In this document: positions 21,769 through 30,251 of the stretch, in pieces | Position numbering within the stretch: position 1 is the first letter of the stretch | How the letters are laid out: every line of letters begins with the position of its first letter | Source: Chamaesiphon sp. | GTDB lineage: Bacteria > Cyanobacteriota > Cyanobacteriia > Cyanobacteriales > Chamaesiphonaceae | Assembly: GCA_965246715.1 (NCBI GenBank) | Contig: CBDFFH010000002.1 | Span: 32,001-96,000, forward strand | Direction: 5' to 3' | DNA length: 64,000 bases | The notes under the pieces: generated by a model | What the model was told of the DNA's origin: nothing | Database searches by the model: none | What the model saw: only the letters and a program-made list of their open reading frames with translations | Position numbers and translations under genes: made by a program

Positions 21769-23421
21769 TTATTTAGTCAATTCCACCGTTACGGTTGCGG
21801 ACATCCCTGGGGCAATGCGCGACTCATAACCTTTCAAGCTTTGGGGATCGAAGACGACCTTCACAGGGATGCGCTGAACGATTTTGGTAAAGTTACCAGT
21901 AGCATTATCGGGAGGTAGCAACGAAAATCTCGCGCCAGATGCAGGTGCAACACTTTGCAGGCGACCAACAAATGGATGGTTGGCCAAAGAATCGATTTTA
22001 ACTTCAACTGTTTGCCCTGGCTGCATTCTACTAAGTTGTGTTTCCTTGAAATTGGCAACTACCCACGGATTGTTATCGACAATCGCCATTAAGGGCGTGC
22101 CGGATTGGGTTTGCTGGCCGACTTCGACTCGTTTGTTACCAATTCTGCCGTTATTTGGTGCGACGATATTGGTGTAGGACAGTTGGAGTTGGGCATCCTT
22201 AAGCGTAGCTTCGGCTTGAGCGACATTGGCAAGTGCGGCTTGATATTGACTCTTGTTGACATCCGTTTGAGAGTTCGCAGCACGAGCTTGCTCGACGCTG
22301 CCTTGGGAAGTGGTCAGTTGGGCTTTGGCGCGATTGACTCCCTCTTGGGCTTGGGCAACTCGGGAACGAGCTTGTAATACCCCCGATTGCGCCTGGGCGA
22401 ATTGAGATCTTGCTCTAGCTACGCCTTCTTGCGCTTGGGCGAGTTTGGCTCTAGCACTGACGATCGATTCTTTTGCTTGGGAGACACGGGATCTAGCTTG
22501 CTGAACTGCTTGAACGGCAGCGCTGCGTTGGGCGAGGGTAGCTTGATAAGTAGCTCTGGCGGTATCTAACTGCTGTTGTGGTGCGGCTCCGGCTTGTTGC
22601 AAGTTTTGGTAACGTTGGAAATCCGCTTTTGCTTTGATTAAATTCGCATCGATTTGGGCGACTTGCGCTTGAGCGGCAGGAACGCCCGCCTCGGCTTCGG
22701 CCAGGGATGCTTGGGCAGCGGGAATAGCAGACTGCGAATCATTTACTGCGGCGATCGCGGCACCAATTGCCGACTGGGCCTGAACTACAGCGGATTGGGC
22801 GATCGGTACTCCCGATTGGGCTTCGGCCAGAGCGGCTTGGGCACTGGAGATTCCTGCCGTAGAATTAGATACTCCGCCTTGAGCCTGAGTGCTACTAGCA
22901 GCGGCATTTTGAGCGGCAACTTGAATATTTGATTTTGTAGTAGCAGCTTGGCGTTTAGCAGTCTCTAGTGCGGCTTTTGCTTGAATTACTCTAGATTGGT
23001 AGTCGCGCGGATCGAGCTTGATGAGAGTTTGTCCGGCAGTTACCTGTTGATTGTCTGCGACTAAAACTTGGGCGACATTACCATTCACGCGCGCACTGAT
23101 GGGATAGATATCTCCGGTCACCGTAGCATTATCGGTCTCTTCGTGAGTCTGGGCAAATTGCCACCACCGCAACCCAAAGATGCCAGCTACAGTCGCAACT
23201 CCTAGGCCGATCGCGAGCAACAAGATCTGCTTTTTGCTGGGATGAAAGCCATGCTTGCGCTTGGGTGGAACTGCTGGATCTGCGACACTCGACCCAGCCT
23301 CAACAGGGACTAGTTCCGAACCTTTTACAGCCAGATCTGATTCCCGATCCAATTGTTTGTGACCATTGGATGTCGCGGTAGGGGGGTGTGCTGGAAGTGG
23401 CTGGGAATCGGTCAGTTTCAT
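21769..23421 (-). CDS. HlyD/EmrA-type membrane fusion protein
   Basis: ETDNA, LDPRDY, a long A/Q coiled coil, ANFKETQL and PPDNATGNFTKIVQRIPV. Confidence 0.92.
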   Translation of the reverse strand: MKLTDSQPLPAHPPTATSNGHKQLDRESDLAVKGSELVPVEAGSSVADPAVPPKRKHGFHPSKKQILLLAIGLGVATVAGIFGLRWWQFAQTHEETDNATVTGDIYPISARVNGNVAQVLVADNQQVTAGQTLIKLDPRDYQSRVIQAKAALETAKRQAATTKSNIQVAAQNAAASSTQAQGGVSNSTAGISSAQAALAEAQSGVPIAQSAVVQAQSAIGAAIAAVNDSQSAIPAAQASLAEAEAGVPAAQAQVAQIDANLIKAKADFQRYQNLQQAGAAPQQQLDTARATYQATLAQRSAAVQAVQQARSRVSQAKESIVSARAKLAQAQEGVARARSQFAQAQSGVLQARSRVAQAQEGVNRAKAQLTTSQGSVEQARAANSQTDVNKSQYQAALANVAQAEATLKDAQLQLSYTNIVAPNNGRIGNKRVEVGQQTQSGTPLMAIVDNNPWVVANFKETQLSRMQPGQTVEVKIDSLANHPFVGRLQSVAPASGARFSLLPPDNATGNFTKIVQRIPVKVVFDPQSLKGYESRIAPGMSATVTVELTK

Positions 23422-23876: not shown

Positions 23877-25448
23877 TTGACCACGATCGCCGCACAGCAA
23901 CCACCACAACAAGTACCACTCAAAACCTGGATCGGCCTGCTTGGAGTAATGATCGGCGCATTTATGGCGATCTTGGATATTCAGATAACCAACTCGGCGC
24001 TCAAAGATATTCAGGGCGCACTATCTGCTTCGATCGAAGAAGGTTCGTGGATTGCCACATCCTATCTAGTCGCCGAAATTGTCGTGATTCCGCTGACTGG
24101 GTGGTTGAGTCGAGTATTCTCGATTCGCACCTACATCCTGGTAAACGCCGCACTATTTTTAGTCTTTTCGATCTGTTGCGCTTTGGCGTGGGATTTGAAT
24201 TCGATGATCGTGTTTCGGGGCTTACAGGGCTTCACCGGCGGCGTATTGATTCCGATGGCATTTACGATCGTCTTGACGACCTTACCGCCAGCCAAACAAC
24301 CGATCGGTAACGCTCTATTTGGTGTGACGGCTGTATTTGCGCCGTCAGTCGGCCCCACGATCGGTGGCTGGTTGACTGAAAATTTTGGCTGGCAATATAT
24401 CTTTTATCTCAATATCATTCCTGGGTTAGCCTTAATTGCGGCAGTCTGGTATGCGATTCCGGCTGGGGCGATGCAGTTAAATTTACTCAAAGGTGGCGAC
24501 TGGTTTGGGATTGGCGCGATGGCGATCGGGTTGGCTTCGCTGGAAGTAGTTTTAGAAGAGGGCAATCGCAAAGACTGGTTTAGCTCGGAACTAATCAGCC
24601 GACTGGCAATTACTGCGGTAATTTTCCTGACGATATTTTTTACGATCGAATTTACTAGCAAACGTCCGTTTATCAATCTGCGGTTGTTAAAGCGGCGGAA
24701 CTTTGGGCTGTGTACGATTATTAATGTCGCGCTGGGATTGGGTTTGTATGGTTCGATCTATATTTTGCCGCTGTATCTGTCCCAGATTCAGGGCTACAAC
24801 GCGCTCCAGATCGGTGAAGTGATTGCCTGGTCGGGGATTCCTCAGTTGTTTTTGATTCCGTTGATTCCCAAATTGATGCAACGGTTTGATGTACGGATTT
24901 TGTTAGCAACGGGGGTGAGTTTATTTGCAATTAGTTGTTTTATGAATTCAGATCTGACGGCGGATGTCGGGATGGATCAATTACGATTTCCACAGATCGT
25001 CCGCGCGTTCGGACAACCGCTGGTGTTAATCCCGTTGACAGCTACAGCTACGGCAAATATGGAAAGATCGGAAGCTGGTTCGGCATCGGCGCTGTTTAAT
25101 ATGATGCGAAATCTCGGCGGATCGATCGGGATTGCCACGCTCGGAACGATCTTGGATCTACGGGAGAAATTTCATTCGAGTATTATCGGCGAATCTGTCT
25201 CGCTCTACAATCCCGCCACCCAAGAGCGACTGAATCAATTGCAGCAAAATTTTATCAGTCGCGGGATCGACCCCAGTACGGCTTATCAACAGGCGATCGC
25301 CGCGATCGATGCCACAGTTCGCAAACAGGCGTTCGTGCTTGCCTACGGCGATTGTTTCTACTTTGTCGGCTGTTCTTTGCTAGTGGCTGGGATTGCAGTA
25401 ATATTCATCAAGAAGGTGAAGGTGAGCGGTGCGGGTGGCGGACATTAG
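23877..25448 (+). CDS. DHA2/EmrB MFS efflux permease
   Basis: AFMAILDIQI, WIATSYLVAE, GPTIGGWL, LEEG..DWF and RNLGGSIG motifs; TTG start. Confidence 0.92.
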   Translation: MTTIAAQQPPQQVPLKTWIGLLGVMIGAFMAILDIQITNSALKDIQGALSASIEEGSWIATSYLVAEIVVIPLTGWLSRVFSIRTYILVNAALFLVFSICCALAWDLNSMIVFRGLQGFTGGVLIPMAFTIVLTTLPPAKQPIGNALFGVTAVFAPSVGPTIGGWLTENFGWQYIFYLNIIPGLALIAAVWYAIPAGAMQLNLLKGGDWFGIGAMAIGLASLEVVLEEGNRKDWFSSELISRLAITAVIFLTIFFTIEFTSKRPFINLRLLKRRNFGLCTIINVALGLGLYGSIYILPLYLSQIQGYNALQIGEVIAWSGIPQLFLIPLIPKLMQRFDVRILLATGVSLFAISCFMNSDLTADVGMDQLRFPQIVRAFGQPLVLIPLTATATANMERSEAGSASALFNMMRNLGGSIGIATLGTILDLREKFHSSIIGESVSLYNPATQERLNQLQQNFISRGIDPSTAYQQAIAAIDATVRKQAFVLAYGDCFYFVGCSLLVAGIAVIFIKKVKVSGAGGGH

Positions 25449-25451
25449 ATA

Positions 25452-25676
25452 ACGTGAGTTTCTCCTACCGGAGAGGCTACGCCAACGGCTTAAGGATATT
25501 GGCTCCGCTCTGGCTCCGCCCTCGATTGAAATCGGGGCTAACGTTACAAAGTCCGCCTTCGCGGACTGAATATCTTAGTCCGCGAAGGCAGGCTTTTGCC
25601 GCTCGCGGCAACAACCGGACTTCGCATCATGAGCCGAGACTTTAGTCTCCAGGCTCCTCTTATCCCGAACTCAGGT
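25452..25676 (+). mobile_element. MITE family B copy between the convergent stops of the permease gene and gyrB
   Basis: Ends ACGTGAGTT... / ...CTTATCCCGAACTCAGGT; shares its right arm with 59239-59300. Confidence 0.8.
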
Positions 25677-27613
25677 TAAATATCTAAATCCATCATATTT
25701 AGTTTAGAACCATATGTTTCAATAAATTCCCGACGTGGCGCGACTCGATCGCCCATTAAGATTGTAAAAATCCGATCGGCTTCAGCAGCATCTTGAATTT
25801 CAACACGTTTGAGCGTGCGAGTTTGTCGATCCATTGTAGTCTCCCACAACTGCTGGGGCATCATTTCGCCCAATCCTTTAAACCGCTGAATATTGTAGTT
25901 GGCATTAGCCGGAAACTCAGCAATCTTTTGTTGCAACTCGCGTTCGCTATAGCAGTAATAGTGATTGCGCCCGCGTTCTAATTTATAGAGCGGTGGGCAA
26001 GCAATATAGATATAACCTTCTTCAATTAAGGCGCGTTGGTAGCGATAGAAGAAAGTCAGCAATAGCGTCCGAATGTGGGCACCATCTACGTCGGCATCTG
26101 TCATCAAACAGATCCGGTGATAGCGAAGCTGTTCGGATTTGAAATCTTCACCGCGAACTCCGAGTCCTAATGCGGTAATTAGCGCCTGGATTTCGGTGTT
26201 TTTGTAAATCTTTGAATCTTCAGTTTTTTCGATGTTCAAGATCTTACCCCGGAGCGGTAGGATCGCTTGAAACCTTCGATCCCGTCCTTGTTTTGCCGAA
26301 CCTCCTGCTGAGTCACCTTCGACGATAAAGATTTCAGATTCGCTCGGATCTTTCGAGCTACAATCTGCCAATTTACCAGGCAAAGTTGAGGATTCTAATA
26401 CCGACTTCCGGCGGACTAATTCCCGCGCTCTTCGGGCTGCTTCGGCGGCATTGAATGCTTGAATTGCTTTCTCTAAAATTGCGTCAGCAATATTGGGGCG
26501 AAATTCGAGATATTCAGTCAAGGCTTCAGAGACGATCGAGTCTACAATGCCCCGAACTTCAGTGTTACCTAACTTAGTCTTGGTTTGTCCTTCAAATTCA
26601 GGATTTGGTACCTTCACCGAAACAATTGCTGTTAAACCTTCGCGGATGTTTTCACCACCTAAGTTGGAGTCACCTTCTTTAAGTTTATTCCGTTTGCGGG
26701 CAACGGCATTCATCGTCCGCGTCAAGACGACTTTCAAGCCTTCTAAATGCGTCCCACCATCGATCGTCCGAATGTTATTCGCAAAACCTAAAACGTTATC
26801 GCTATAAGCATCAATACACCATTGCAGAGCGACTTCGACTTGAACTTTATTCTTCTCGCTTTGGATATAGATTACTTCTTCATGTAGCGGTTGCTTATCA
26901 GCATTGATATAGGAAACATATTCCTTAATCCCACCTTCATAGTAGTAATTTTCGACTTTGGGTGTATCGGTACCCAATAATTCCAACCGATAATCGGTAA
27001 AGCTGATCCGAATCCCTGCATTGAGGTATGCTAATTCTTTGAAGCGACTGGCTAAGGTATCGAAATCAAACTCGATACTCTCTTTGAAAATCTCTGTATC
27101 TGGTAAAAATGTGACCGTCGTACCCGTCCGATCTTCTGGACTGGGAACGACTTCCAATCCCGACACCGCGATCCCTTTTTCAAAGCGTTGGGTATGGATT
27201 TTCTGGTTTCGCCAAACTTTGACTTCTACTTGTGCAGAAAGCGCGTTTACTACCGAGATCCCGACTCCATGCAATCCACCTGAGACGGTATAACCACCAT
27301 CGCCAAATTTACCACCAGCGTGAAGCACGGTTAAAACTGTTTCGATCGTTGATTTACCAGTTTGGGGGTTGATACCTGCGGGAATCCCCCGTCCATCATC
27401 GACTACTGTTACCGAGCCATTGGCGTTAATTGAAATATCGATGTTTTTGCAATGACCAGCCAGTGCTTCATCGATCGAGTTGTCCGCAACCTCGTATACT
27501 AGGTGATGGAGTCCTTTCGGCCCTGTCGAACCGATATACATCCCCGGTCGAACTCGGACGGCTTCTAGTCCTTCGAGTACGCGAATGTTACCGTCATCAT
27601 AATCAGTGGTCAT
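25676..27613 (-). CDS. gyrB: DNA gyrase subunit B
   Basis: [56 protein letters not shown] and QRFKGLGEM motifs. Confidence 0.97.
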
Positions 27614-27782
27614 AAACGATGCTCCAATAATTGGTTCCAAGCCGCCTTTGGCTGCATTGATGATAAAATCACTCCAAAATTATAACACAAATAGGTTATA
27701 GGCGACGCTAGATAGTTCTGTGAATATTTTCTAGATTGGGATGGCTCCTAAATATTTATTAGTTTTCAGCACTATCCCTCGC

Positions 27783-27808
27783 AGGGTACCCACAAGGGGC
27801 ACCCCTAC
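27783..27808 (-). repeat. Solo REP-like palindrome
   Basis: Reverse complement of GTAGGGGTGCCCCTTGTGGGTACCCT. Confidence 0.7.
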
Positions 27809-27903
27809 AATAAATCTCAAAATTCCCTCTTTTCTTATTCCCCTCCTCGGAGCGGTGCGCCACCGACGGGTTTCCCGTCGCTCACGGCGCAACAAGACAG
27901 GGG

Positions 27904-29148
27904 TTAGGGGTGGGTTCCGGATTTGAGGCGGGTTTGTTTCGATTTCTCACGGGCTAATTCTCGCTCCTTTCTATATAGTTCGGCGGCATTGGATGCCTGA
28001 ATTGCTCGATCGATAATTGCATCAGCAACATCAGGATGAGATGCTAAATATACTGTCACGGCTTCGGACACGATCGAATCTACAATCCCGCGCACTTCAC
28101 TATTCGCTAATTTAGCTTTAATCGGGCCTGCCCACTCTGGATTTGGCAGTAACACCGACACAATTGCGGTTAAGCCGTTACGCGTATATGCGTCATTGAG
28201 ACTAGCATCTTTCGATTGGATTCTATTTTGTTGACTAGTAATTTGATTTAAAGTGCGATTTACAGCCATTTTTAACCCCTCGCAATGCTGCCCCCCTTCC
28301 ATCGTTTGAACTGTATTGGCAAAGCCAAGAATGTTATCAACATCGGTATCTAGACACCACTGAAGTGCTACTTCTACCCGAACCCGATCTTTTTCCGTCC
28401 TTGCATAAATAACATCCTCATGTAACGGCTGTTTTTCACGATTGAGGTAGGCGAGATAATCCCGCAATCCGCTTTCATAATAGTAGCTTTCTAGCTTGGG
28501 TTCGTTTATTTCTAATGATTGGAGCCGATAATCTGCAAAACTAATCCTAATCCCTGCATTGACACCAGCTAATTCTCTAAATCGATGCGCTAGGAGATCG
28601 AAATCAAACTCGATCGTTTTCTGAAAAATCTCTGGATCTGGTAGAAAGGATATTGTCGTCCCTGTGCAATCGTTTTCACTGGGTGAGATTTCCAATTCTG
28701 ATACTGCAAACCCTTTCTCGAAGCGTTGAGTATGGAGTTTACCATCGCGCCAAACCTTAACTTCGAGTTGAGATGATAGGGCGCTAACTACCGCAATCCC
28801 GACTCCATGCAAATTGCCGCCAATTCTATAATCACAATCTCTAGATTTGCTGACATAAAGATGCGTAAAAATTTCTTCGATCGAGAATTTACCAATTTGG
28901 TTATTTTGCTCGCTTTCAATCCCGCGCCCGTCATCGGTTACAGTAATCGAACCATTAGCATTAATCGAGATATCGATATTTTGGCAGTGTCCCGCTAGTG
29001 CTTCCTCGATCGAGTTATCGACAACCTCATATACTAAATGATGCAGACCTTTCGATCCGGTCGAACCGATATACATCCCTGGTCGGACACGGACGGCTTC
29101 TAGTCCTTCGAGTACCCGAATGTTACAGTCATCATAATCATCGGTCAT
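27904..29148 (-). CDS. Truncated, diverged GyrB paralog (GHKL ATPase + transducer, no TOPRIM)
   Basis: 414 aa from ATG 29148, colinear with gyrB up to the ...RELARE helix, then stops inside a GGGTTAGGGGTGGG repeat. Confidence 0.85.
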   Translation of the reverse strand: MTDDYDDCNIRVLEGLEAVRVRPGMYIGSTGSKGLHHLVYEVVDNSIEEALAGHCQNIDISINANGSITVTDDGRGIESEQNNQIGKFSIEEIFTHLYVSKSRDCDYRIGGNLHGVGIAVVSALSSQLEVKVWRDGKLHTQRFEKGFAVSELEISPSENDCTGTTISFLPDPEIFQKTIEFDFDLLAHRFRELAGVNAGIRISFADYRLQSLEINEPKLESYYYESGLRDYLAYLNREKQPLHEDVIYARTEKDRVRVEVALQWCLDTDVDNILGFANTVQTMEGGQHCEGLKMAVNRTLNQITSQQNRIQSKDASLNDAYTRNGLTAIVSVLLPNPEWAGPIKAKLANSEVRGIVDSIVSEAVTVYLASHPDVADAIIDRAIQASNAAELYRKERELAREKSKQTRLKSGTHP

Positions 29149-29342
29149 AAGCAACGCTCCGTTAATGGGCTGCAAGCCACCTTTGAAACACAAAAGATCG
29201 AATCGCCCCAAAGTTATAACATAAGCATTCTAAAGAGGGCAATAGACACTTCCGTGAATGTTTTAAACAAGATACCTTAACCTAATAAACTTTATTGCAG
29301 AACGCTCTCAACTGTTCACTGTTCACTATTCACTGTCCCCCT

Positions 29343-30251
29343 ATGCTCATAGTTATCTGCGGTGCGACGGCGACGGGGAAATCAGGACTAGCGATCGAGA
29401 TAGCCCAACGGCTTAATTCCAGGATCGTCAGTGCCGATTCGCGGCAAATATATCGGGAGTTTGATATTGCTACTGCGAAAGTATCTGCTGCCGAACTGGC
29501 CTTGGTGCCGCATTACCTTGTTAGTACATGCGATCCTAATTATACGCTAACGGTTGCGGAATATCAATTACAGGCACAGCAACTCATCGAGACGTTTCAT
29601 CAGCAACAGACCATTCCGCTCTTAGTTGGGGGAACGGGACTATATATTAAGTCAGTGGTGAAAGGGATGAAGATCCCGCGCGTCGCACCACAGCAAGAGT
29701 TGCGATCGCAATTAACTAGATTGGGGCAGGTGCAGTGTTATCAGATCCTTCAGCAAGTCGATCCACAAGCAATGCAAAAGATCCATGCCAACGATCCGAT
29801 TCGGACGATTCGCGCCCTAGAAGTTTATTATGTGACGGGTCGATCGATCTCCAGTCAGCAGGGTGAAGCTCCGCCGAGTTATCCAGTGTTGCAAATCGGT
29901 TTGGATTGTACGGATTTAGATGTGCTGACGCAACGGATTCAGCGGCGGACAAAGCAGATGATTGAGTTGGGTTGGGAGGCAGAAGTTGCATATTTAGGCG
30001 CAAAATATGGCTGGGATTTACCATTACTAAATACGCTGGGATATGCCGAGATGCGGCAGCATTTGCAGGGCGAAATTAGTTTAGCAGAAGCGATCGATCT
30101 TACCATTGTACATACACGTCAATTTGCCAAACGCCAGCGGACTTGGTTTCGCGCGATTCCCGAAATCGAGTGGTTCGATAGCGACGATAAGATGTTGCTC
30201 GATCGGGTGTGGGCGAGGATCGATCGATTTTACCGCGATTACAATCGCTGA
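29343..30251 (+). CDS. miaA: tRNA dimethylallyltransferase
   Basis: GATATGKS, SADSRQIY, VGGTGLY and FAKRQRTWF motifs. Confidence 0.96.
   Translation: MLIVICGATATGKSGLAIEIAQRLNSRIVSADSRQIYREFDIATAKVSAAELALVPHYLVSTCDPNYTLTVAEYQLQAQQLIETFHQQQTIPLLVGGTGLYIKSVVKGMKIPRVAPQQELRSQLTRLGQVQCYQILQQVDPQAMQKIHANDPIRTIRALEVYYVTGRSISSQQGEAPPSYPVLQIGLDCTDLDVLTQRIQRRTKQMIELGWEAEVAYLGAKYGWDLPLLNTLGYAEMRQHLQGEISLAEAIDLTIVHTRQFAKRQRTWFRAIPEIEWFDSDDKMLLDRVWARIDRFYRDYNR

Follow-up and report, generated by a model that had tools for sequence, protein, structure and literature searches.

The locus

Here, we describe a gene for a truncated paralog of the DNA gyrase B subunit that lies between gyrB and miaA in Chamaesiphon sp. 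(GenBank assembly GCA_965246715.1, contig CBDFFH010000002.1, positions 32,001 to 96,000 of the forward strand; this whole stretch of 64,000 nucleotides (nt) is referred to as the window, and positions are counted from its first letter). The gene, a selected yet dispensable copy of the ATPase half of GyrB, has a middle part that is traded between species, and we tentatively suggest that its product may act as a decoy for inhibitors of the GyrB ATPase. Lengths are given in amino acids (aa), and the features discussed are as follows.

27904..29148, minus strand: TOPRIM-less GyrB paralog, 414 aa, GHKL ATPase plus transducer, approximately GyrB43 (from the translated reading frame, Pfam, a structural model and Foldseek)
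25676..27613, minus strand: gyrB, 645 aa, the sole full-length GyrB/ParE found in the genome
29343..30251, plus strand: miaA (Pfam IPPT), divergent neighbour of the paralog
28939..29148, minus strand: paralog codons 1-70, with the N-terminal strap (Y5, I10), RPGMYIG, the N-box with E41/D44/N45, and the family-fixed D48E
28099..28926, minus strand: swapped central cassette, approximately codons 75-351, with a middle like that of genome G004 and ends like those of genome G011 (triplet test)
28792..28863, minus strand: hypervariable ATP lid/P-loop, residues 96-119, one residue shorter than in GyrB
directly after the paralog lid, minus strand: S120A (E. coli Ser121, K+ site)
28117..28134, minus strand: switch loop WAGPIK in place of FEGQTK (E. 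coli Gln335 to Pro)
29149..29290, minus strand: copied gyrB leader of the paralog, extended -10 TGTTATAAC at 29213-29221
27614..27755, minus strand: gyrB leader, extended -10 TGTTATAAT at 27679-27687

The original prediction, made from the letters of the window alone, described an intact 414-aa open reading frame between gyrB and miaA, and such a frame, without stops, does run at 27904-29148 on the minus strand, directly upstream of gyrB and with 64% identity to GyrB residues 1-410 in a pairwise alignment. The motifs that it listed were likewise found, with RPGMYIG, EVVDNS and LHGVG kept (host gyrB itself reads EVADNS), DDGRGIP changed to DDGRGIE, EFEGQTK changed to EWAGPIK, and the lid changed to THLYVSKSRDCDYRIGGN with a one-residue deletion. 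E. coli residue numbers were obtained by alignment and correspond to the host GyrB number plus one in the ATPase domain and minus eight at the QTK loop. An assembly artefact was rejected because one 957-bp contig in sequencing run X1, perhaps made from the sample that yielded the window, matches the window allele with 0 differences, and because orthologs occur independently.

The paralog belongs to the GHKL ATPase superfamily, with a Bergerat fold, N, G1 and G2 boxes and an S5-like transducer, and the GHKL residues E41, N45, D72, G74, G116 and G118 (host numbering) are invariant among its relatives. Pfam places HATPase_c (PF02518) and DNA_gyraseB (PF00204) above cut-off, while Toprim (PF01751) and DNA_gyraseB_C (PF00986) give no match in the paralog and are not on record for the 50 clusters of its family. 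An AlphaFold2 model from a 50-sequence alignment has the GyrB43 fold (predicted local distance difference test, pLDDT, 75; predicted template modelling score, pTM, 0.76), with low confidence at the strap, lid and switch loop, and its top Foldseek matches are GyrB and ParE structures, including GyrB43/ParE44 (template modelling score 0.77-0.79). The two domains and the end point are those of GyrB43, in agreement with the proposal that the protein stops near the boundary of the 43-kDa fragment. It is not a member of the GyrB/ParE family itself: whole-protein scores are 465.7 bits against 882.4 (gyrB, TIGR01059) and 359.4 against 899.95 on the parE profile, each below the curated cut-off, TOPRIM and the C-terminal GyrA-binding domain are missing, and neither the QTK loop nor the invariant lid is preserved.

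The fragment was also held to be unable to supercoil DNA alone, and indeed TOPRIM is absent and a stand-alone TOPRIM partner was not found in the genome (99.8% complete), where tblastn with GyrB gave no further GyrB/ParE match even at an expect value (E) of 1. Split topoisomerases occur in phage T4 (gp39/gp60) and in topoisomerase VI (B/A), and the domain content of the paralog matches the ATPase subunit of such an enzyme, to be completed by a separate TOPRIM subunit. This arrangement seems highly improbable, as the genome holds no GyrB-type TOPRIM or C-terminal piece even at E 1, in a search that did not extend to the topoisomerase VI A type, and as the helix towards TOPRIM and the QTK loop are degraded.

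A leader and 5' end shared with gyrB

The duplicated leaders and extended -10 boxes of the original prediction lie at the minus-strand positions quoted there, and approximately 130 nt of leader can be aligned. A generic sigma-70 scan called neither box (TGTTATAAT, TGTTATAAC), because there is no -35 match at either, and the extended -10 is kept in all four Chamaesiphon paralog leaders aligned. In Microcoleus, where a similar tandem copy exists (see below), the paralog leaders are nearly identical to the organisms' own gyrB leaders, and the proportion of synonymous differences (pS) from gyrB is 0.25 in the 5' region of the gene against 0.57-0.87 elsewhere in it. Residues 1-70 share 83-88% identity with host GyrB and cluster with it in an N-terminal tree. 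Codons 1-70 are the most gyrB-like part of the paralog and have probably been partly homogenised with gyrB. Since the likeness of the 5' end reaches synonymous sites, gene conversion contributes to it, and a conserved strap argues only weakly that the fragment pairs with GyrB.

This last point bears on whether the fragment might be a modulator of gyrase in trans, pairing with full-length GyrB through the strap, capping the ATP gate and damping or resetting the enzyme. Y5 and I10 are invariant in 50/50 paralogs, and retention in the strap region is 0.97/0.89 (retention is the share of GyrB-invariant sites kept, given throughout as Chamaesiphon/Microcoleus, for site groups picked after the alignments had been seen). 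The strap completes the ATP site of the partner subunit (PMC4159350), residues 1-70 have the high identity to host GyrB given above, and a shared promoter would hold paralog and GyrB in proportion. We nevertheless consider a modulator unlikely, as gene conversion explains the 5' likeness, synonymous sites and leader included, without selection for pairing, and as a brake induced by relaxation would oppose homeostasis. In Synechocystis, the non-manipulated gyrase subunits go up when supercoiling is disturbed, a response presented as homeostatic (PMC9825172).

Distribution and selection

A protein search listed 120 matches, 50 of them TOPRIM-less clusters (384-417 aa, with one of 470 aa); 44 of the 50 rank above every full-length GyrB among the matches listed, and the few clusters with names are from Chamaesiphon. 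Intact paralogs occur in four of 27 genomes of the genus (G000, which is that of the window, G004, G011 and G016), each time beside miaA, and remnants with the middle deleted occur in three more (G020, G005 and G042). In 15 of the 27, miaA and gyrB are adjacent without a gene between them, and one genome gave no match whatever. Adjacency of miaA and gyrB is the default order, with the paralog sitting between the two. In each of the three remnants (L023:9300-9560, L024:2400-2677 and L183), 69-86 codons from the start of the gene are fused to 15-55 codons from its end, and the stretch lost is approximately the one exchanged among intact alleles. In G016 (L030:5925-6086, C320), the edge of a contig holds a further gyrB-like 5' end next to a second miaA, reflecting either a strain mixture or a second locus.

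The ratio of non-synonymous to synonymous change (dN/dS, by the NG86 method) is 0.25-0.34 among the four Chamaesiphon alleles and 0.04-0.07 for the gyrB genes, while the pairwise comparison of paralog and host gyrB gives dN 0.245 and dS 1.35; six Microcoleus alleles have a pooled dN/dS of 0.36 versus 0.05 for gyrB. Within the gene, values range from 0.63 (six pairs) to 0.90 in the lid and from 0.23 to 0.42 in the body segments. The original prediction had suggested selection and had named dN/dS against gyrB and orthologs as one check. The whole-gene values lie well below 1 and, with intact orthologs and 50 clusters, uphold the suggestion, a decaying one-off not being what is seen. A pseudogene was rejected on the same grounds, dN/dS not being near 1, stops and frameshifts being absent and intact orthologs existing. 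Selection combined with patchy presence in the genus means that the paralog is under purifying selection, evolves faster than gyrB and is dispensable.

A slower kind of decay was also weighed, in which long-lived, near-useless duplicates, readily produced in tandem at gyrB, would have their lid and QTK loop freed by TOPRIM loss and their frame kept open by conversion and recombination until slow deletion. Deletion remnants in 3/27 genus genomes, a broken copy in one Microcoleus genome, absence between miaA and gyrB in 15 genomes, lid dN/dS near 1 and 5' homogenisation would all follow from it. Such a history is improbable, given that dN/dS stays at 0.23-0.42 in body segments synonymously far from gyrB, that derived residues are fixed in 50/50 paralogs, that the same Pro appears at Gln335 in three families while 109 TOPRIM-bearing representatives retain Gln, and that conversion cannot maintain the unlinked orphan families described below.

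Residues kept and lost

Residues were compared between 71 Chamaesiphon GyrB sequences and the 50 paralogs, all of which keep Tyr5, Ile10, Glu42, Asp45, Asn46, Glu50, Asp73, Gly117 and Gly119 and share the derived residues Asp49Glu, Val111Ile and Phe332Trp (host D48E, V110I and F340W). Arg136, a coumarin contact (PMC3189412), is kept in 45/50 Chamaesiphon and 19/20 Microcoleus paralogs, and Tyr109 in 44/50 and 20/20, respectively. Retention is 0.96/0.96 for the adenine/aminocoumarin pocket (8 sites) and 1.0/1.0 for the catalytic acids E41 and D44 (70/70 proteins), the equivalents of Glu42 and Asp45 being described as cooperating bases in PMC13614785; it is 0.39/0.53 for the lid and K+ site, 0.25/0.48 for QTK and 0.78/0.71 for other sites.

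The losses fall on residues with assigned roles. Gln335, a two-state switch linking hydrolysis to transducer motion (PMC4159350), is Pro, Ser or Ala in 50/50 paralogs, with Pro in 43/50 from Chamaesiphon, 15/20 from Microcoleus and 114/120 orphans; in a single record, P0053, 54 extra residues are inserted precisely where the switch loop lies. Ser121, a ligand of the activating K+ (PMC4388272), is Ala in 48/50 Chamaesiphon paralogs, 47/50 have a lid shortened by one or two residues, and Lys337 is Arg in 44/50, a position at which Gln kills the ATPase and Arg is not among the changes tested (PMC2845627). The QTK coupling loop and the C-terminal helix that runs towards TOPRIM have both degenerated. 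Given the kept pocket residues and the lost Gln335, Ser121 and lid, the paralog likely still binds an adenine-site ligand, with the coupling machinery lost.

An alternative use for this chemistry would be a neofunctionalised stand-alone GHKL ATPase or DNA clamp, still binding ATP and hydrolysing it slowly, whose Pro/Arg switch loop fits TOPRIM-free work on DNA, a DNA-mimic protein or another partner. E41, D44, N45, D72, G116 and G118 (host numbering) are invariant in 50/50 paralogs, the gains D48E, V110I and F340W are fixed (50/50), Arg replaces Lys337 in 44/50, and orphans keep E41/N45/D48 and read A-G-P in 109-114/120 (best 120 of 763 matches). T-segment cavity residues have a retention of 0.89 in Chamaesiphon and 0.08 in Microcoleus, on a residue mapping that is partly tentative (PMC6030046), and are thus a point for a clamp in the former and against it in the latter. 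With ATP-binding residues broken in some lineages, no travelling partner gene in any lineage looked at, and a patchy, mosaic distribution unlike that of a housekeeping enzyme, we judge a clamp to be quite unlikely.

A mosaic cassette with a hypervariable lid

The middle of the paralog is exchanged between species as a cassette. Between G011 and the window, flanking proteins are 94-100% identical and GyrB is identical, while the paralog is just 70% identical, with nucleotide identity of approximately 0.95 at both of its ends and 0.53-0.85 between them. The middle of the window paralog is instead nearest to that of G004, the gyrB of which is distant (pS 0.24-0.28 versus 0.52-0.62). In a triplet test with 5000 shuffles, the exchange maps to codons 75-351 (p<=2e-4); the G004 allele is mosaic as well, and gyrB is not. 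CGATCG sites, which we take to be the HIP1 core, do not coincide with the breakpoints at codons 75/351. In run X1, the window allele has a depth of 5.9 and is accompanied by a second contig over the same stretch (depth 19.3) and by an insertion also seen in G011, so that both paralog alleles likely co-occur in one sample.

Variation is concentrated in segment 71-125, which is 99.4% identical among GyrBs and 70% among paralogs, and there are 43 lid versions in 50 paralogs versus one in 71 GyrBs. Distances in this segment correlate with those of the two ends at 0.80 and 0.54 in GyrB and at -0.01 and -0.04 in paralogs, and records P0042 and P0044 differ almost solely within it. The lid carries 95 of 781 differences among close pairs versus 51 expected, although the pairing is biased towards such an outcome. 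These patterns suggest diversifying selection on the lid, and only suggest it, since lid dN/dS is below 1. Neither inter-species cassette swaps nor 43 lid versions would be predicted for a modulator that pairs with GyrB.

Other TOPRIM-less lineages

A search for similar truncated paralogs in other cyanobacteria, proposed in the original prediction, found them in Microcoleus/Kamptonema and as unlinked orphans. In a survey of 400 genomes drawn across the phylum, second GyrB matches within the same order or class were confined to five rows of one family (f18), and those in non-photosynthetic relatives are likely parE. In all five f18 genomes, the gene immediately upstream of gyrB is a TOPRIM-less copy that shares 46-48% identity with the window paralog, and miaA lies on the far side of that copy in the four loci that show it. 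Named homologs (20 clusters) are from Microcoleus and Kamptonema; the copy is present in 8/71 genomes of that genus (two split over contig ends), with a fragment in one more. The loci are L143-L147 and L150-L156 (G231, G352, G372, G046, G099, G471, G450 and G439).

A tree computed without the lid and QTK columns, and without the orphans with their long branches, places the Chamaesiphon paralogs as the sister group of Chamaesiphon GyrB (SH-aLRT branch support 98). Forcing both tandem families together is only marginally rejected (approximately unbiased test, p 0.046), which makes two independent origins at the miaA-gyrB site likely rather than certain. Among the 224 invariant sites, 24 are lost in both families, for an odds ratio of 3.5 (p 5e-4, the sites not being independent of one another).

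The orphans are proteins of approximately 340 aa (330-350) with 27-29% identity, present in 3/221 genomes of the order and scattered in cyanobacteria, Beggiatoa, Hahella and Tahibacter, and have a His-rich lid (HxPHxH) and an FAGPT[KR] loop. Loci are L026:7105-8163, L027:411-1463, L028:5786-6820, L029:5740-6732 and L188:607-1608. Linear plasmids of Streptomyces carry further TOPRIM-less GyrB copies of approximately 390 aa (L136:3295-4473, L137:4959-6149, L180, L181 and L182), some adjoining the terminal helicase gene; the two aligned have an EGST[RK] loop and Asn46Tyr. No recurring neighbour of orphan or plasmid copies was found among 22 proteins scanned. Neither the orphan nor the plasmid families have a link to gyrB, and both are far from host GyrB (approximately 28% for the orphans), a further point against modulation by pairing.

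All four TOPRIM-less lineages share a changed Gln335, Ser121 replaced by Ala, Gly or Cys, and a remodelled lid. As a control, 150 representatives at 50% identity were taken, 145 of which cover position 335: 109 with a TOPRIM motif retain Gln; 30 without the motif also retain it, nearly all with a canonical lid, and are likely fragments or frameshifts; and five without the motif have lost it. A single protein looks like an exception, and it consists of two tandem TOPRIM-less repeats, each of which is altered.

Several single records stand beside these lineages. P0378 (747 aa) comprises two tandem TOPRIM-less GyrB43 repeats; P0240 and P0530 have an orphan fused behind an SMI1/KNR4 (SUKH)-like domain (E 8e-4 and 0.03, below the Pfam cut-off); and P0218 and P0533 are orphans with an uncharacterised 130-aa C-terminal extension. 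P0362, a 393-aa TOPRIM-less copy of cyanobacterial type (65% to other cyanobacterial GyrBs, EGATL loop, Ser121Ala), is a possible additional origin represented by one record. A metagenome scan with generic patterns was uninformative, giving 80 loci at 41-55% identity, none of the paralog family, and a pattern scan of genome contigs gave 16 matches, two of the paralog family (both Chamaesiphon) and 14 without GyrB similarity. The best 15 rows from a phage collection are at 41-46% and unannotated.

A possible decoy for GyrB-ATPase inhibitors

The original prediction offered a decoy or a modulator; additions to it are that the cassette is mosaic, that presence is patchy and accompanied by deletion remnants, and that such copies probably arose repeatedly. 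Of the readings considered, the best fit, to which we give a little less than an even chance, is that the paralog is an uncoupled decoy for GyrB-ATPase inhibitors that spares the single essential gyrase and is co-regulated with gyrB, because this would bring together a retained pocket, the loss of coupling, patchy occurrence, cassettes traded between species, a putatively stress-coupled promoter and the recurrence of such changes in other lineages. Aminocoumarins and cyclothialidines attack the GyrB ATPase domain (PMC3189412), and FicT/Fic-1 target it at Tyr109/111. The fragment would bind such antibiotics, or GyrB-binding toxins, released by neighbours and titrate them off GyrB. Its copied gyrB promoter may raise its level when gyrase is inhibited, weaker lid closure may leave the pocket open to inhibitors and limit poisoning of the real GyrB, and lid alleles might differ in the ligand bound. 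A decoy should keep the inhibitor-binding residues of its target, and the pocket retention of 0.96 in both tandem families agrees with this.

Several observations weigh against a decoy. Across segment 71-125, identity to GyrB is only 53%, although mimicry of the target would be expected of a decoy, and with lid dN/dS at 0.63-0.90 rather than above 1, relaxed constraint explains the lid equally well. The invariant catalytic acids (70/70) and the Chamaesiphon T-segment residues exceed the needs of a passive sponge. Asp73Asn in 5/20 Microcoleus and Asn46Tyr in 2/2 aligned Streptomyces proteins would cut aminocoumarin binding (PMC3189412), and one ligand class therefore cannot explain all lineages. 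No inhibitor source linked to the paralog loci was found, with fic near only one of five Streptomyces copies, and PADLOC 2.0, which profiles known anti-phage defence systems, assigned 0 families to 4/4 proteins. A Fic link in the window genome was rejected, its two Fic-domain genes lying away from the locus.

A broader and more speculative version, which we hold to be rather doubtful, is that bacteria have repeatedly made their own GyrB ATPase half into a dedicated polymorphic immunity protein, with gyrase inhibition inducing the antidote, in cyanobacteria through the copied gyrB promoter, and binding cassettes traded between species. The marks of such a class would be the Gln335 to Pro/Ser loop, the lost K+ site and the hypervariable lid. 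The tandem-repeat protein and the SUKH-like fusion are weak hints of an immunity role elsewhere.

Relation to known systems

A close counterpart is E. coli GyrB43 (PDB 4WUB, 1EI1 and 6ENG), which has the same two domains and end point and shares E42, D45, N46, E50, D73, R76, G77, I78, R136, T165, Y5 and I10 with the paralog; the paralog differs in Gln335Pro, Ser121Ala, Asp49Glu, Pro79Glu and a shortened, variable lid, and in being a natural gene beside an intact gyrB rather than a laboratory fragment. In work by del Castillo in 1991, the 5' half of gyrB at high copy reportedly sequestered coumermycin. That was an engineered wild-type fragment, whereas the paralog is chromosomal, diverged and polymorphic, and titration is only proposed for it. 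PDB 3CWV, 'DNA gyrase, B subunit, truncated' (369 aa), which we take to stem from Myxococcus structural genomics, has the same TOPRIM-less architecture and is a distant match (E 6e-36); no paper on it was found in the literature searched. Clusters with HATPase_c and DNA_gyraseB only appear in databases as 'ATP-binding protein', and ESM Atlas clusters of this kind come from several phyla.

The aminocoumarin self-resistance genes gyrB(R)/parY(R) encode full-length, drug-insensitive working subunits within producer clusters. They are, like the paralog, second gyrB-like genes, although for the paralog a link to the drug site is only proposed, and it differs in lacking TOPRIM, in keeping the drug contacts and in its housekeeping locus. 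Qnr/MfpA, YacG and GyrI are accessory genes that shield gyrase, as proposed for the paralog, but have unrelated folds that bind gyrase, whereas the paralog is a piece of the target itself (PMC10886550); protection by inhibition of the Qnr/MfpA/YacG kind is what a modulator would resemble. Arabidopsis GYRB3 is also gyrB-derived, with the gyrase role lost and the Lys337 position changed, yet retains the transducer part and a SANT domain where the paralog retains the whole ATPase domain (PMC2845627). The paralog may be a variant of such target-sequestration or gyrase-protection genes. No description of a truncated GyrB paralog was found in the literature searched, including the accessible part of a 2024 review of protein gyrase inhibitors; subscription journals were mostly outside this search.

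The GyrB ATP site is a validated antibiotic target, and mutations there that confer resistance usually leave the enzyme badly impaired (PMC3189412). If the decoy reading is true, that trade-off would be escaped by having a second copy of the pocket that is free to vary, a natural resistance route undescribed in the literature searched. The repeated Pro/Ser at Gln335 and Ala at Ser121 form a natural experiment on the coupling of hydrolysis to movement in type IIA topoisomerases, and the alleles, as small soluble proteins, could serve as baits for new gyrase inhibitors. Should the immunity reading hold, allele diversity would mirror GyrB-ATPase antibiotics or toxins that await discovery in the biofilms of streams and soils. 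The paralog genes are annotated as 'DNA gyrase subunit B' or 'ATP-binding protein', which, combined with their mosaicism, means that gyrB-based typing of Chamaesiphon and Microcoleus can be misled.

Flanking genes and minor features

An EmrAB-type pump on the other side of gyrB had been noted in the original prediction. The genes emrA (21769-23421, minus strand) and emrB (23877-25448, plus strand) are present but divergent, and so form no single operon; among ten other genomes whose flank extends for at least 4.8 kb, the pump adjoins gyrB in only one, and it is missing in one that bears the paralog, so the link is not conserved. In several relatives (L037, L009, L016, L138 and L139), GyrB contains an insert of some hundred residues near 423-452, likely an intein from the label in the source name. 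Between the paralog stop and the gyrB leader (27780-27900) lie two palindromic intergenic elements with approximately 59 and 6 genome matches, and a 7-nt tandem repeat upstream of miaA (29295-29345) is far longer in G011 (L021) than in the window.

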